From Patescibacteria group bacterium (GTDB lineage: Bacteria; Patescibacteriota; JAQUNI01), in assembly GCA_028717685.1 (NCBI GenBank), contig JAQUNI010000001.1:633329-697328 (forward strand): a stretch of 64,000 nt of DNA, read 5' to 3'. This document shows, piece by piece, positions 48 to 54,804 of the stretch. Position 1 is the first letter of the stretch; each line of letters starts with the position of its first letter. The notes under the pieces are model-generated. The model did not search any database and was not told the origin of the DNA. It saw only the letters and a list, made by a program, of their open reading frames with translations. The position numbers and the translations under genes are program-made.

Positions 48-899
48 CTAATTTTGCCTTCGGAAAAGGCGGTTTAAAAAAATTCTTGTTTGGAGAGGCA
101 GGAGGGGCACTCTTCTTTTTGTCTTTTCCATGATGGTTTGGGCGTTAAAAAGATGGTATTCATCCTGTCCCAATTTTAATCTTTGATTATAGAACTCTCT
201 GGCTTTTTGAGCAAACCTTTTTTGGATTTTAAGATTTTTAAAACTTAAAGAGCCGCGATAATAACGATATTTAATTAAGCATTGAGGCAGATTGGTAATT
301 TTTTCCCCTGCCGTTAAAAGGGTTAAGTAAAGGTCATAATCTTGGGCATAATAAAATTTTTCGCGATACATCCCCACACCAAAATTTTTGGTGTGGGGAT
401 AAACTCGTTTGTTGCGGAACATAATTGAAGGATGCAGGATACAGTTACGGCGGGTCAAGGTCTGTGCTGTCTTTTGGGGATTATCCTTTTTTAAATAATG
501 ACCGATTTTTTTACCTTGACCGTCAATAAATACAGCGGAACTGCCGATTAAAGACATTTCAGGGTGATTTTCCAAGTAAGAATATTGAATCTGCAAACGT
601 TCAGGCAAAGAGAGATCATCCGCGTCCTGCCGAGCGATGTATTTGCCGCGGGCGACCTTAAGCCCTTCATTTAAAGAACGGGTTAAGCCGAGATTGCGAT
701 TATTCTTGATGATCTTTATTCTTTTATCCTGACTCGCGAACTTTTTTACTATTGACGAAGAATCATCTTCTGAAGCATCGTCAATGATAATAAATTCAAA
801 GTTTGCGAAGCTTTGGTTTAAAATAGAAGAGATGCTGTCTTCTAGGTATTGGGCGCCATTGAAAACAGACATTATGATTGAGATTTGGGGAACTTTCAT
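48..899 (-). CDS. Glycosyltransferase family 2
   Basis: N-terminal ISIIMSVFNGAQYLEDSISSILNQS...IIIDDASEDDS and a DAD motif are typical of the GT2 GT-A fold. ORF of 283 aa. Confidence 0.8.
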   Translation of the reverse strand: MKVPQISIIMSVFNGAQYLEDSISSILNQSFANFEFIIIDDASEDDSSSIVKKFASQDKRIKIIKNNRNLGLTRSLNEGLKVARGKYIARQDADDLSLPERLQIQYSYLENHPEMSLIGSSAVFIDGQGKKIGHYLKKDNPQKTAQTLTRRNCILHPSIMFRNKRVYPHTKNFGVGMYREKFYYAQDYDLYLTLLTAGEKITNLPQCLIKYRYYRGSLSFKNLKIQKRFAQKAREFYNQRLKLGQDEYHLFNAQTIMEKTKRRVPLLPLQTRIFLNRLFRRQN

Positions 900-1048
900 T
901 CTTTTAACTTATAACTTGAAACTTGTAACCCAAGACTTGAGTTACAAGTTATAGGTTACAAGTTACAAAAACTTTTAATTGTTAGCTATCGTATTTAGTT
1001 TAGACTAAGTATATCAATATAATATAAGGTTATTCGTTTTTAGAATTT

Positions 1049-15908: not shown

Positions 15909-16173
15909 AATATAAAGAATAAAGCATTTTTTATTTATTTAAGAAATCCGTAAAACAAGAAACAAAAAATAAGAAATGAGCAAGAAACAAAAAATACCAA
16001 ATAATAAATATTGAAAGGCGAAAGTATAGCACAGCGAATACCGTAGTCTAAATTTCAGGGCATTGTTTCATAAATTATTAATTAATCTTTATCTTACAAT
16101 TCAGATAGACTATAATTTAAAGACTAATGCTCTAAATTCTACATTCTACATTCCAAATTCTAAATTTTAACCT

Positions 16174-17964
16174 ATGAATGAGGTTGAAGAAATTAAAAAT
16201 CGGCTTAATGTTGCCGATGTAATCGCGGACTATATCCAATTGACGCCGGTCGGCGCCAATTTCAAAGCCCGTTGTCCTTTTCACAGCGAGAAAACGCCAT
16301 CTTTTTATGTTTCGCCGGAAAAGCAGATTTGGCATTGTTTCGGGTGTGAAGCGGGCGGTGACATTTTTACTTTTGTCCAAAAAATGGAGGGGCTTGAATT
16401 TCGGGAGGCGCTCAAGATTTTGGCCGATAAGGCGGGCGTAAAGTTGGAAGCGCGCGATCCGAATTTGGAAACAGAACGCGATAGACTGGTTAGCCTTTGC
16501 GAGTGGGCGGCGCGCTTTTTTCACCAGGCTCTTTTGCGTTCCCGTGAGGGGAAGATCGCCAGGGATTATCTGGTTTCGCGCAAGGTTGGAGAAAAAATGA
16601 TCCAGAAATTTCTGCTTGGCTATTCTCCTTTTTCCTGGAATCTCACTATGGATTTTCTGCGCAAGAAAGGGTTTTCCGCGGCGGAGATTTTCGCCGCAGG
16701 GCTTGCGAGCCAAAAAACCCCGGGCAGATTTTATGATCGTTTTCGGGGACGACTGACATTCCCTTTGCGCAACATCCACGGTCAGACAGTTGGTTTTGGC
16801 GCACGGGTTTTAAATGAAGAGAGGGATCATTTGGGCAAGTATATTAATTCTCCTCAAAGCCTGATTTATGATAAAAGCGGCTTGCTTTACGCCTTGGATC
16901 AAGCGAAACAGATGATTAAAAAAGAAAATCTCTGCATCGCAGTGGAAGGATATTTGGATGTGATCTCCTCCCATCAGGCAGGGGTCACCAACGTGGTGGG
17001 CGTTTCGGGTACTGCTCTTACTTCCGCTCAACTTGCTTTAATGAAAAGGTATACCCATAATCTTGCGCTTTGCTTTGACGCGGACATGGCTGGAGTCGGA
17101 GCCGCCAAGCGCGGCATTGAAAACGCAATCGCGGCTGGCTTAGCTGTCCGCGTCATTATTTTACCTAAAGACGAGGATCCCGATTCTTTGATCAGGAAAA
17201 ATCCAGAGCTTTGGCGTGAAGCCACCAAGCGAGCAGTCGGAATTATGGAATTCTATTTTGATCTAGCTTTAAAGCGTTACAACCCAGAGGATCTTGCGGG
17301 AAAGAAAATGATTGCCGCTGAAGTTTTACCAACAGTTAAAAAAATACCAGACCAGATTGAACAAGCCTATTATTTACAAAAGTTGTCATCTCTCATTAAC
17401 ATTCGCGAGGAATCTTTGCGCGAGGCAATGGCTAGAATAGATTTAACTTTTCAATATTCTCAAAATCCTGATCGCAATACTGTCGCACCGCCAGCGGATT
17501 TTAGCCCTGCGCCCGCGGATATCGTAGGCCGCCGTCTTTTAGGTCTCGGCTTAAAATACCCCCGTTTTTTAGGGGAAATTTTAGAGGAATCCAAACCCTC
17601 TATTTTATCCTCCGAATGGCAGGATATTTACAAAGTCTTAAGCGAATATTATAATAAGAGAAGGAGCTTTGATTTTATTCATTTTAAGCGAAAAATTCAG
17701 ACTTCCCATCCGCAGTATGTCACGCGTTTAGAAGTGGCTATTTTAGATGTGGAAAAAGATTTAGAAGAAAATGACCAAAAGGAGGACATTATCGCTTTAG
17801 AGGTGCAACAGGCTTTAAAAAGGCTTAAGGAGCAGTATTATAGACAAAAATTAGAAGCGATTGAACTTCAAATGCAGAGAGCGGAAAATATCAAAGATAG
17901 AATTCTCTTACAGAGTTTGACTAAACAACTTCAATCTTTCACCCAAAAATTGGGGAAATTATAG
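16174..17964 (+). CDS. dnaG: DNA primase
   Basis: CHC2 zinc finger (CPFHSEKTPSFYV...WHCFGC) and a Toprim domain (EGYLDVIS...). Confidence 0.9.
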   Translation: MNEVEEIKNRLNVADVIADYIQLTPVGANFKARCPFHSEKTPSFYVSPEKQIWHCFGCEAGGDIFTFVQKMEGLEFREALKILADKAGVKLEARDPNLETERDRLVSLCEWAARFFHQALLRSREGKIARDYLVSRKVGEKMIQKFLLGYSPFSWNLTMDFLRKKGFSAAEIFAAGLASQKTPGRFYDRFRGRLTFPLRNIHGQTVGFGARVLNEERDHLGKYINSPQSLIYDKSGLLYALDQAKQMIKKENLCIAVEGYLDVISSHQAGVTNVVGVSGTALTSAQLALMKRYTHNLALCFDADMAGVGAAKRGIENAIAAGLAVRVIILPKDEDPDSLIRKNPELWREATKRAVGIMEFYFDLALKRYNPEDLAGKKMIAAEVLPTVKKIPDQIEQAYYLQKLSSLINIREESLREAMARIDLTFQYSQNPDRNTVAPPADFSPAPADIVGRRLLGLGLKYPRFLGEILEESKPSILSSEWQDIYKVLSEYYNKRRSFDFIHFKRKIQTSHPQYVTRLEVAILDVEKDLEENDQKEDIIALEVQQALKRLKEQYYRQKLEAIELQMQRAENIKDRILLQSLTKQLQSFTQKLGKL

Positions 17965-18050: not shown

Positions 18051-19391
18051 GTGCCTCGTCGTAAAAAAACAACAGTGAGGCGCAAATCGCGCCGCAAGAA
18101 ATCTTACAAGCGGAGTCCGCAGCCCAAAAAAATGGGAATAAAGAAGAGGAAAAAAAATAAGCCTAAAACTAAAAGAACGGCTTGGCAGAGAGCTCGCCCC
18201 GCAAGGAAGAGAAAACCTCTTTATTTTTCGCGCGCGAAAAAAAGCGCCGCTAGGCGCAAAAAGACCCGTCGTCCAGTCAGGCGGACGAGGCGGAAAAGCG
18301 CGGTTTCGCAAACGAAATTAGATTATCTTTTTCATAAAGGCAAAGAGCAGGGTTTTATCACGGTGAACGAGATTTTAGCAGCAATTCCTGAGATTGAAGA
18401 TTACGAAGAAGCTCTAGACGATTTTTTATCTAAATTAGAAGAAGAGGGAGTGAGTATAGAAGAAACCAAAGGGGATTTAATTGAGAAGGCAGAAGAGAGC
18501 GGGGAGGAAGAAGGGGAGAAGTCTCCGAAAGAAATAGGATTTTGGGAGGGTCTGGATCTTGGCGATATCTCTTCAGATTCGGTTCAGATGTATTTGCGGG
18601 AGATCGGCAAAGTACCCCTTCTGACTTCTCAAGAAGAGGTTGATTTATCCAAGCGCAAAGAAAAAGATGACCAGGAAGCGAAGAATAAGCTTATTGAAGC
18701 TAATTTGCGCCTCGTTGTTTCTATAGCTAAAAAATACACCGGACGTTCTCTTTCTCTTTTAGATTTAATTCAAGAAGGCAACATTGGTCTTTTCCGGGCG
18801 GTAGAAAAATTTGATTACCGCAGGGGCTATAAATTTTCCACTTATGCCACTTGGTGGGTTCGTCAGGCAATCACGCGGGCGCTCGCCGACCAATCGCGCA
18901 CGATTCGGATTCCCGTGCATATGGTGGAAACGATTAATAAATTCACCCAGACGGAAAGACGTTTAGTGCAGGATTTGGGACGAGAGCCGATGCCTGAGGA
19001 AATCGCGGCGGAAATGGGCATTCCCTTGGAAAAAGTGCGGCAGATTTTAAAGGTGTCGCAGGAAACTGTTTCTTTGGAAACGACCGTGGGTGAAGATGAC
19101 GAAGATTCAACCCTTGGCGATTTTATTGAAGATGAAAAGACGCCTACCCCGGACCGCTTGGCGGGTCAGGAACTCTTAAGAAACCATATTAAGGACGTAA
19201 TTCGGGATTTAAACCCCAGGGAGCAGAGGATTTTAAATATGCGTTTTGGTTTAAGCGATGGCATCTCTCATACCTTGGAAGAGGTGGGGCAGGAGTTCGG
19301 CGTCACCCGTGAGCGGATCCGCCAAATTGAAGCGAAAGCTTTGGAAAAGATTCGGGATCATACGTTGATTAAGAAGTTGAAGGATTATTAG
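18051..19391 (+). CDS. rpoD: RNA polymerase sigma-70 factor RpoD with K/R-rich N-terminal extension
   Basis: Region 1.2 ([11 protein letters not shown]), region 2 ([16 protein letters not shown]...LIQEGNIGL...[13 protein letters not shown]), region 3 and region 4 ([12 protein letters not shown]). GTG start. Confidence 0.9.
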
Positions 19392-19397
19392 AGTAGC

Positions 19398-19428
19398 AAT
19401 CGGTAATCAGTAACTGGTAATCGGTAAT
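19398..19428. repeat. Left arm of inverted repeat flanking the four-helix-bundle gene
   Basis: AATCGGTAATCAGTAACTGGTAATCGGTAAT. Its reverse complement recurs at 19817-19850 (GTAATCAGTAA...TCGGTAAT shared). Confidence 0.6.
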
Positions 19429-19809
19429 ATGAATATTATAGATAAAAAGATCGTCAAATTTTATGATCTGGAGGCTTGGCAGAAGGCTTATGAATTGGTC
19501 TTGGAAATTTATAAGATTACAAAGTTATTTCCCAAGGAAGAATTGTTTGGGATGACAAGCCAATTAAGAAGAGCGGCGGCTTCAATAGTAGCTAATATCG
19601 CAGAAGGTTTTGCGAGATACCATTATAAAGATAAGGTAAAGTTTTATTACCAAGCACGCGGTTCGGTTGCCGAGGTTCAAACCTTTTTGTTATTAGCCAA
19701 AGATTTAAAATATATTGATTTAAAAATTTGTAAATATTTAGGGGAAAAGTGCAATGAGGTAGGAAAGCTGATTAATGGTTTGATTCGTTCCATTGAGAAA
19801 CAAAAATAG
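19429..19809 (+). CDS. Four-helix-bundle protein (23S rRNA intervening-sequence protein family)
   Basis: The sequence features EAWQKAYELVLEIYKITKLFPKEELFGMTSQLRRAAASIVANIAEGFAR...ARGSVAEVQTFLLLAKDL are diagnostic of the PF05635 family. Confidence 0.75.
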   Translation: MNIIDKKIVKFYDLEAWQKAYELVLEIYKITKLFPKEELFGMTSQLRRAAASIVANIAEGFARYHYKDKVKFYYQARGSVAEVQTFLLLAKDLKYIDLKICKYLGEKCNEVGKLINGLIRSIEKQK

Positions 19810-19816
19810 TTTATGA

Positions 19817-19850
19817 ATTACTAATTACTAATTACCGATTACTGATTACG
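19817..19850. repeat. Right arm of inverted repeat flanking the four-helix-bundle gene
   Basis: ATTACTAATTACTAATTACCGATTACTGATTACG is the imperfect reverse complement of 19398-19428. Confidence 0.6.
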
Positions 19851-19857
19851 AATATAT

Positions 19858-19931
19858 TCCGCGATAGCTCAATGGTAGAGCAACTGGCTGTTAACCAGTG
19901 GGTTGCAGGTTCGAGTCCTGCTCGCGGAGCC
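19858..19931 (+). tRNA. tRNA-Asn (anticodon GTT)
   Basis: Manual fold: acceptor TCCGCGA/TCGCGGA; D-arm GCTC-AATGGTA-GAGC; anticodon stem ACTGG/CCAGT with loop CTGTTAA; T-arm GCAGG-TTCGAGT-CCTGC; discriminator G. Confidence 0.85.
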
Positions 19932-20021
19932 GACAAAAATATGGCTTAACAAATCCATATTTTTTATACCCCTTCGTGGACGTTAGAACTTTTTAATGAT
20001 ATAATGAAGTTATGAAAAAAT

Positions 20022-20173
20022 ATCCTCTTATTCTATATGCGGTGGCGATGGCAGCCGTCATAGTCGGTGTAGATTTAGTGTTCTTCAGAAATCATCCCTG
20101 GGAACGGCTGATAGTGAACATTGGCATTGTCTTGGTGTTCGCAGCTTTCTACTTGAGATTCCTTTATCGGTAA
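20022..20173 (+). CDS. Small two-TM membrane protein (50 aa), hypothetical
   Basis: ATG at 20022 (MKKYPLILYAVAMAAVIVGVDLVFF...). It is below the ORF-track cutoff. Confidence 0.3.
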
Positions 20174-50241: not shown

Positions 50242-50350
50242 AACGAAGCAATTTTATTGATGACTATGTTCAAAGTCATTCCAATAATTTTTTAAAGCTC
50301 AATGAATATTGAGTTTTATGAAATTGCTTCGTTGTCCGCCTGGGGCGGAC
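50242..50350 (+). other. Structured intergenic element (13-bp perfect inverted repeat enclosing two hairpins, plus GC hairpin)
   Basis: AACGAAGCAATTT at 50242 pairs with AAATTGCTTCGTT at 50321. Internal hairpins GATGACT/AGTCATT and CTCAAT/ATTGAG. GTCCGCC-TGG-GGCGGAC at 50334-50350. Confidence 0.5.
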
Positions 50351-53990: not shown

Positions 53991-54530
53991 TTATGGGTTG
54001 GGCGGATGATGAAAGCGGGCAACTAAATCCATAATTACCTTTTTGATTTTTTGCGGATGGGGGAGGGCATTAAAATAAAATTTATCCTGCTCCGCGCCAG
54101 CGGATTCAATCTCAATATCGCCATAGTCTAAAAATGCGGCAAGGATGCCAAACATTTTAATGGAAATGTCCTGAATGTTATATAATTTTAATTCATTCAA
54201 ATTATATTTAAAAAATCCTTTTTGTTCATTTTCCATAACCCTCTTGTTGGTTATAATCACCGTGTTTAGGGTATAAATCATAATATTGTAAAAAGCGATC
54301 ATCCATAAAATAAAAAGATAAACCGCCGCTAAAAACCAATAGACAGAGGAGAAGATTTCATACCAGCCGCTTGCTGCGATTAAAAAATAAATCCAGAAAG
54401 GAATTAAAGCAAAGAGGGCAAGGACGAAAAGAGGTCCGAATAATCTAATCCAGTGCCGGCGAGTGAGCAAAATAACTGTTTCATCTGGCTGGCGGCCGCG
54501 GAAATTATTTGTGGAAGAAAAGATAGGCAT
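53991..54530 (-). CDS. Membrane protein with bacterial PH (bPH_2/YdbT-like) domain
   Basis: Two N-terminal TM helices then a bPH-like domain (ETVILLTRRHW...; FFKYNLNELKLYNIQDISI...DIEIESAG). Confidence 0.6.
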   Translation of the reverse strand: MPIFSSTNNFRGRQPDETVILLTRRHWIRLFGPLFVLALFALIPFWIYFLIAASGWYEIFSSVYWFLAAVYLFILWMIAFYNIMIYTLNTVIITNKRVMENEQKGFFKYNLNELKLYNIQDISIKMFGILAAFLDYGDIEIESAGAEQDKFYFNALPHPQKIKKVIMDLVARFHHPPNP

Positions 54531-54567
54531 AAAATTAAGTCAAAACTCAAATCTCAAAAGTCAAAAC

Positions 54568-54804
54568 TTAGAAGATATTTTGGGAAATTTCGTCCCAGTT
54601 GATTTGGCGATAAAGGATAAGAATAATGGCGAAAAAGAAAAAAGAACCCAAGAAGAAACACAGGGCTAAAATCTTAGGTTTACCCCCCACGCCAAACCGA
54701 ATGAAATGATAGATAACGCAAAAGGCGTACCAAAAATAGATGGCAAGGAATATCAAGAAAACAATTAAGGGAAGATTGAAGCCATTTTCAAGAATAGAAC
54801 CCAT
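54568..54804 (-). CDS. Small membrane protein, hypothetical
   Basis: 78 aa with two TM helices. No RBS evaluated. Confidence 0.3.
   Translation of the reverse strand: MGSILENGFNLPLIVFLIFLAIYFWYAFCVIYHFIRFGVGGKPKILALCFFLGSFFFFAIILILYRQINWDEISQNIF

Follow-up and report, generated by a model that had tools for sequence, protein, structure and literature searches.

Why does a gene of the four-helix-bundle (4HB) family known from intervening sequences (IVSs) of 23S rRNA lie in the spacer between rpoD and a tRNA-Asn gene, with repeated sequence on either side? The question is raised by a 64,000-nt stretch of a Patescibacteria group bacterium genome (assembly GCA_028717685.1, contig JAQUNI010000001.1, positions 633,329 to 697,328; hereafter the window). 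IVSs have hitherto been treated as curiosities of rRNA genes, and we know of no function and no rule of genomic context for the abundant 'four helix bundle protein' genes located outside rRNA. A first-pass annotation of the window had proposed that the gene and its flanking inverted repeats form an IVS-like cassette transposed to an intergenic site. What is new here is the IVS-type cassette in operon spacers, as an arrangement general across phyla.

The gene is complete at the annotated coordinates, and its product matches both PF05635 ('23S_rRNA_IVP'; E=1.8e-39, 134.7 bits, cutoff 33.8) and TIGR02436 ('four helix bundle protein'; E=1.2e-37, 128.5 bits, cutoff 24). It is the only open reading frame (ORF) inside the cassette. 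The closest solved structure is that of a Xanthomonas homologue (PDB 2GSC, E=5.9e-18), which consists of five chains forming a homopentamer. Judged by dN/dS (0.10 in the comparison with the protein of locus L001, with a range of 0.07-0.23 across comparisons), the 4HB protein is under purifying selection and functional.

On each side, the gene is bordered by a tandem array of period 7 according to Tandem Repeats Finder (4.4 copies at 19398-19428 and 5.4 copies at 19816-19853), with AATCGGTAATCAGTAACTGGTAATCGGTAAT at 19398-19428 and ATTACCGATTACTGATTAC at 19831-19849. The two arrays are complementary in three registers located 7 nt apart, which produce inverted repeats of 27, 26 and 19 nt with 84-85% complementarity; the gene is thus indeed enclosed, as had been noticed, by inverted repeats built from heptamer-like GGTAAT/ATTACC units. 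The 5′ arm begins 3-6 nt past the rpoD stop codon and ends at the ATG, and the 3′ arm begins 7 nt past the TAG and ends 4-7 nt ahead of the tRNA-Asn gene, of which it forms the 5′ leader. Together, the two arms occupy the entire rpoD-tRNA-Asn spacer around the 4HB gene. The best ungapped stem has a z-score of 8.5 against shuffles of the 3′ flank, and only one other inverted repeat within 2.5 kb ranks with it in length across the window. The long stem expected on folding positions 19390-19860 is closed in the minimum free energy structure (-119.6 kcal/mol, z=-4.5, with 0/100 shuffles as good), and the arm-arm duplex amounts to -34.8 kcal/mol. Sequence of the GGTAAT type is found at this locus only within the window. 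An Rfam scan detected no rRNA in the 64 kb, in agreement with the placing of the cassette outside rRNA, between rpoD and tRNA-Asn.

A protein search produced thousands of homologues, mostly from Patescibacteria, and 60 genomic loci were taken for reading of the flanks. At nearly all of them, (N-GTAA-Y-N)n is present right before the ATG and (N-R-TTAC-N)n right after the stop codon. The inverted repeat formed by the flanks exceeds z=4 in 48/59 homologous loci, with a median arm of 25 nt, as against 3/106 neighbouring genes submitted to the same treatment, applied generously. Among the complementary pairs of period-7 arrays present in 398 kb, 41 enclose a 4HB gene, mostly with an inner distance of 364-423 nt, and 6 are 'empty' hairpins, whose loops measure 2-27 nt; in these 398 kb, no pair surrounds a gene of another type alone. 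Complementary enclosure is a specific feature of 4HB genes, and the layout bounded by a stem is the norm of the family and no one-off. The idea of a single transposition event does not survive this observation, whereas the IVS-like anatomy does, since it is found again in a genuine rRNA IVS of Azospirillum (L079) and in that of Coxiella, to which we return below. No rRNA was found within 3 kb of the homologous loci (0/60). As a separate observation, a distance of ~750 nt separates the arms at L031:2946-3746, between which the 4HB gene is accompanied by a second small ORF, which resembles a tRNA-binding domain, judged by eye from its sequence only.

The arms themselves are regular in size and composition. 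Four to five units are present in 57/76 arms, and an N-GTAA-Y-N logo, also matched by the window 5′ arm, is common to 40/42 loci. The 3′ arm matches the 5′ arm of its own locus better (16.9) than the arms of other loci (10.8), and this holds when only loci of the GTAAY type are compared (19.3 versus 14.3). Divergent 4HB proteins are accompanied by other, still complementary heptamers (GATACTN, AAGNGCA, GGAAGGA and a GC-rich unit), and two paralogues of one genome carry different arm heptamers.

The same layout is present outside Patescibacteria. Searching plasmid records by tblastn yielded homologues from cyanobacteria, Riemerella and other organisms, wedged between co-directional genes with gaps of ~35 nt and with heptamer arrays on both sides. 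The arrays form complementary pairs in L073, L074, L077, L078, L081 and L084, and the 4HB genes of Bacteroidota (Riemerella) and cyanobacteria share the layout of the window. In Azospirillum lipoferum 4B (L079), the 4HB ORF lies inside the 23S rRNA gene (RF02541, 923 bits) and is flanked by inverted GACRGAN heptamer arrays. The heptamers differ by clade (NGTAAYN, GACRGAN, AGTCAGR, GGGTGTA, GGAGATA, AAGGTTY) and the 7-nt period is constant. Conservation of the cassette anatomy extends to at least three phyla.

Could the inverted repeats have arisen fortuitously, as part of a generic heptamer background of low complexity in the spacers? Heptamer arrays are indeed common and varied in sequence. 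Period-7 arrays dominate the tandem-repeat spectrum of the homologous loci (132 of period 7), where 88 arrays of period 7, 14 or 21 are located away from 4HB genes, and GTAAY arrays are widespread without such genes. Period 7 is also the most frequent tandem-repeat period in the window, in which three single arrays (Table 1) are present besides the arms. The concern that the GGTAAT-rich sequence might be a generic low-complexity spacer was therefore justified as far as the abundance of heptamer arrays goes, but not as regards complementary enclosure, which is specific to 4HB genes. An origin by chance appears highly improbable: it is refuted in practice by the control (48/59 4HB genes versus 3/106 neighbouring genes), genes of other types are not enclosed by themselves, arms match better within a cassette than between cassettes, and the same anatomy is encountered in four phyla and in a real rRNA IVS.

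Table 1. Coordinates of the cassette, its host genes and the other heptamer arrays of the window.
Feature	Position	Strand	Remarks
4HB protein gene (23S_rRNA_IVP / TIGR02436 family), 126 aa	19429..19809	+	ATG at 19429, TAG at 19807-19809
5′ arm, 4-5 heptamers (AGCAATC GGTAATC AGTAACT GGTAATC GGTAAT)	19395..19428	+	Tandem Repeats Finder, inverted-repeat search
3′ arm, ~5 heptamers (AATTACT AATTACT AATTACC GATTACT GATTAC), complementary to 5′ arm	19816..19853	+	Tandem Repeats Finder, fold
rpoD, upstream host gene	18051..19391	+	Pfam Sigma70 regions r1.1 to r4
tRNA-Asn(GUU), downstream host gene	19858..19931	+	ARAGORN; Rfam RF00005, 74.9 bits
dnaG, just before rpoD	16174-17964		Pfam
'Empty' heptamer hairpin, GTAAC/GTTAC type, no gene inside	899..971		Between two minus-strand genes; longest inverted repeat in window
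Single array (TCTAAAT)5.7	16131-16170		Ends 3 nt before dnaG ATG
Single array (GTTTTGA)4	54540-54568	-	Ends 9 nt before ATG of ORF 53991-54530
Single heptamer array	15953-15976		Of unrelated sequence

The 'empty' hairpin of the window has 36-nt arms (TTATAAC TTGAAAC TTGTAAC and GTTACAA GTTATAG GTTACAA) separated by a short loop, with arrays reported by Tandem Repeats Finder at 901-929 and 940-968. The transcribed minus strand folds at -30.5 kcal/mol (z=-7.2) and the plus strand at -23.5 kcal/mol. The window also contains a non-heptameric inverted repeat at 50242-50333, with 31-nt arms of 74% complementarity around a loop of 30 nt.

The cassettes are co-oriented with their host genes and tightly packed in operons. 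The 4HB gene shares its strand with the upstream neighbour in 56/61 loci (rpoD in the window) and with the downstream neighbour in 48/55, with median gaps of ~38 nt upstream and ~46 nt downstream, about the length of one arm. Recurrent host spacers are rpoD/tRNA-Asn, pheS/pheT, rsmI/metG, pepA/ruvA, the one between the ribonucleotide reductase (RNR) gene and a cob(I)alamin adenosyltransferase-like (ATR) gene, the position before a PrgI-like gene and the one between hydrogenase subunits. In the window, no promoter-like or terminator-like site was found between the rpoD stop codon and the 4HB ATG in a scan limited to the sigma-70 and intrinsic-terminator consensus. No Shine-Dalgarno sequence is present upstream of this ATG, and Shine-Dalgarno usage is low genome-wide. 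The strongest promoter-like site of the region (19977-20005; TGGACG, a 17-nt spacer and TATAAT with a TG extension, 10/12 matches) is located directly after tRNA-Asn and before a small ORF (20012-20173), a position that fits with an operon ending at the tRNA.

By analogy with rRNA IVSs, we propose, with about even confidence, that the cassette is co-transcribed with its host operon, closed by its stem, and that RNase III excises the 4HB mRNA. Lacking a promoter of its own, the cassette would be transcribed by read-through from the dnaG-rpoD operon. The arms would pair in the transcript as a duplex of ~27-31 bp (about -35 kcal/mol), so that the loop would contain precisely the ORF with its ATG and stop codon, and the rpoD 3′ end would come up to the tRNA precursor. 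RNase III would then cleave the stem, as it does in an rRNA IVS, and excision from the operon transcript would release a 4HB mRNA with a short leader. Excision of this kind would make the insertion nearly harmless to the host genes, and it provides a concrete way in which a gene could reside in compact operons without polar effects.

Several observations weigh against excision by RNase III as the whole explanation. In the arms, G:U pairs are not in excess over A:C mismatches (46 versus 50). The sense and antisense duplexes are equivalent (-37.6 and -37.4 kcal/mol), with 25 loci favouring the sense and 23 the antisense strand (p=0.79). Had the stem been selected in the mRNA, an excess of G:U and a more stable sense duplex would be expected; with neither asymmetry observed, selection on the sense-strand RNA is not demonstrated. 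Nor do the unit variants of the 3′ arm follow in mirror order those of the 5′ arm beyond chance, the observed value being reached by 1350/2000 permutations. No register is therefore selected base by base; the arms behave as slip-tolerant arrays, with no single fixed helix. The GTAA core retains 1.3-1.8 bits per position in lineages with saturated synonymous sites while the flanking positions drift, and such conservation goes beyond a pure pairing constraint. The RNase III model alone leaves these constant 7-nt repeats with their GTAA core unexplained. Finally, at least one cassette (L051) is antisense to its host operon, and the arrays of L075 and L080 are direct, not inverted.

Conservation of the GTAA core, together with the 7-nt period, suggests that the arms are recognized in a sequence-specific manner, the alternative being a constraint at the DNA level. 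Since the arrays have 4-5 units, the pentameric 4HB protein itself is possibly their reader. This leads to a rather unlikely explanation in which the arrays are primarily binding sites of a multimeric sequence-specific factor and the complementarity of the arms is secondary. The most economical candidate for such a factor would be the toroidal 4HB pentamer, with about one heptamer per subunit, and its binding to the array at the ATG might autoregulate translation or protect the mRNA. A 7-nt period kept in every clade despite differing sequences, a GTAA core conserved well past the need for pairing and the 4-5 units of 57/76 arms are in line with binding, as are the homopentameric state of 4HB homologues (2GSC; PMC4990558), the RNA binding of the Avd pentamer, the paralogue-specific heptamers within one genome and the arrays kept on both sides without complementarity in L075 and L080. 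Arrays ending at other start codons, such as that of dnaG in the window (16131-16170) and the TAACTGA repeats (PMC4679880), point in the same direction. On the other hand, the predicted binding by 4HB proteins of the IVP type would leave the inverted complementary arrangement found in ~80% of loci without explanation, and clade-specific heptamers could result simply from a common descent of gene and arms. In a small and arbitrary metagenome sample, mostly from non-Patescibacteria, (GTAAYNN)5 arrays were not next to 4HB genes (0/87 arrays in 80 loci, among the matches listed). As these arrays are located away from 4HB genes, they are not exclusive to the cassette.

The distribution of the cassettes among related genomes bears on the third explanation. 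Presence and absence between close relatives is observed at the rpoD-tRNA-Asn site itself. L205, whose RpoD is 95% identical to that of the window, lacks the 4HB gene here, and its 85-nt spacer (L205:3258-3342) contains an empty (ATGAATC)n hairpin that keeps the heptamer phase of the window 5′ arm; the site was either never occupied or has lost its gene. Relatives at 75-76% identity (L208-L210) have a single heptamer array and no gene, and relatives at 83% and 78% identity carry frameshifted or truncated cassettes. Decayed copies were identified in L046, L052, L206 and L207. Elsewhere, two 100% identical 4HB proteins (L016 and L017) are encoded 4.6 kb apart on contig CAZLVG010000002.1, where the inner parts of the arms are common to both copies and the outer units and neighbouring genes differ, suggesting recent duplication or gene conversion with boundaries within the arrays. 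L048 and L051 occupy the same RNR-ATR spacer in opposite orientations, as expected from recombination between inverted arms. Taken together, this variation indicates that cassettes are gained, lost and inverted over evolutionary time. The protein tree shows no clustering by insertion site, and paralogues from one metagenome-assembled genome (MAG) do cluster. Simple vertical inheritance at each site was rejected, as the cassettes of the rpoD site or of the pheS-pheT site form no clades. Mobility revealed by identical proteins in differing contexts was also rejected: P0078, an identical protein on 24 contigs, is in one fixed context throughout. In several relatives (L206:3913-4131, L039:3436-3777 and L045:3688-3958), a group I intron (RF00028, 69-96 bits) apparently splits the tRNA-Asn gene located 3′ of rpoD or of the cassette, and ARAGORN makes no call of this tRNA; the window tRNA-Asn is intact.

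These dynamics raise the possibility, which we consider unlikely, that the cassette acts above all at the DNA level, as a selfish or mobile element with the inverted arrays as recombination substrates. Recombination or gene conversion, via a hairpin or cruciform or via homology to other heptamer hairpins, would cause the gene to spread, to be inverted and to be lost. Such an element would account for the presence or absence of the gene at the same site (the empty hairpin of L205, the single arrays of L208-L210), for the identity of L016 and L017 ending within the arms and for the opposite orientations at the RNR-ATR site. Proteins that cluster by MAG but not by insertion site, decayed copies, empty hairpins in six loci and an absence of strand asymmetry that fits a DNA-level constraint agree with it too. 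Against it, no transposase, integrase or reverse transcriptase was found in or beside the cassettes, no recombinase is evident, and target-site duplication is not visible at the ends of the window arms, the sequences just outside (AGAGTAGC and GAATATAT) not being direct repeats. The fixed context of P0078 does not favour mobility, and a dN/dS of ~0.1 suggests a protein that serves either the host or the element, and not a passenger in decay. Co-transcription followed by excision of the 4HB mRNA is the explanation that we prefer.

A broader view would unite several of these elements. PF05635 4HB proteins and heptamer arrays might be cognate pairs across many phyla, in which the pentamer reads about five 7-nt units with a paralogue-specific code and the arrays autoregulate or process their own gene. 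The rRNA IVSs would then be a subset, and arrays located elsewhere would be targets in trans, candidates being the TAACTGA repeats, the short tandemly repeated repetitive sequences (STRRs) of cyanobacteria and the arrays preceding dnaG in the window. We consider this scheme improbable at present. The enclosure of 4HB genes by heptamer arrays gives a possible partner to the heptamer repeats known from cyanobacteria, Beggiatoaceae and Bacteroidota, which have long lacked an explanation.

Among these, the TAACTGA-type heptamers are direct repeats upstream of start codons in Beggiatoaceae, Cyanobacteria and Bacteroidetes (MacGregor 2015, PMC4679880). Arrays of 2-6 heptamers end there within a few nucleotides of the start codon. 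The window 5′ arm resembles them in position, copy number and unit (TAACTGG, TAATCAG and TAATCGG), but the exact TAACTGA is absent from it; TAACTAG is another nearly identical unit encountered in this study. Phyla with TAACTGA-type heptamers and cyanobacterial STRRs are also rich in 4HB genes. However, the TAACTGA repeats are direct and precede many unrelated genes, with no mention of 23S, IVS or four-helix proteins (PMC4679880), whereas the window arrays form an inverted pair exactly enclosing one gene family.

Avd, the accessory protein of diversity-generating retroelements (DGRs), shares a homologous four-helix-bundle fold with the window protein (PF22296, 2.8e-10; phrog_3206, 6e-18) and is a pentameric, positively charged, RNA-binding barrel. 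Identification of the window protein as a DGR Avd was nevertheless rejected (NF033474, 48.9 bits for a cutoff of 80). No DGR reverse transcriptase, template repeat or variable repeat was found near the window cassette, and a genuine avd gene (L082) is without flanking heptamer arrays or inverted repeat.

The empty heptamer hairpins (899-971 in the window, L046, L056, L205) recall repetitive extragenic palindromes (REPs) and miniature inverted-repeat transposable elements (MITEs) in being short, imperfect, intergenic and multicopy. They differ from them in consisting of tandem 7-mers, some with a conserved protein gene in the loop, and no cognate REP-associated tyrosine transposase (RAYT) or insertion sequence (IS) was seen. 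A transposon or MITE with terminal inverted repeats does not describe the cassette, which contains no transposase and has no target-site duplication; a transposase acting in trans is possible.

Membership of the window protein in a defence system was rejected as well. It gives a weak match to the PADLOC 'Cas4a2' model (E=0.002), and '23S rRNA IVP' is listed among CRISPR-linked proteins (PMC10910872). Cassettes are located between cmr2 and cmr3 on a Picosynechococcus plasmid (L074) and between cas6 and cas4 on a Pseudanabaena plasmid (L075). 4HB cassettes inside cas operons may account both for the CRISPR-linked '23S rRNA IVP' and for the weak Cas4a2 match.

The closest relatives of the window cassette are the 23S rRNA IVSs (helix 45 of Coxiella burnetii, Leptospira, L079). 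The Coxiella IVS has a 28-bp terminal stem cut in its middle by RNase III, its start codon is preceded by GACAGAT heptamers whose copy number varies between strains, and homologues of its protein are pentameric toroids (PMC4990558). IVP ORFs have also been found in rRNA insertions of Candidate Phyla Radiation (CPR) bacteria (PMC11270868). We found no literature linking PF05635 genes to flanking inverted heptamer arrays outside the Coxiella IVS. Like these rRNA IVSs, the window cassette carries a PF05635 protein gene in its loop, terminal inverted repeats that form an enclosing stem within the usual ~20-30 bp (~28 bp in the rRNA IVS) and tandem heptamers abutting the start codon, as in Coxiella and Azospirillum, and it has no promoter or Shine-Dalgarno sequence of its own and would be embedded in a host transcript. 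The differences concern the host, which is rpoD-tRNA-Asn instead of 23S or 16S rRNA (helix 25 or 45), the heptamer, which is NGTAAYN instead of GACRGAN, and the ORF, which is under purifying selection here whereas that of Coxiella is reported as decaying and probably untranslated. Excision by RNase III without religation is a trait of rRNA IVSs that would apply to the window cassette by analogy. Given the matching anatomy of L079 and of the Coxiella IVS, the window cassette is, in its architecture, an rRNA IVS hosted by an mRNA/tRNA operon. IVS anatomy is the general packaging of the 4HB family in at least four phyla, of which the rRNA IVSs become a special case.

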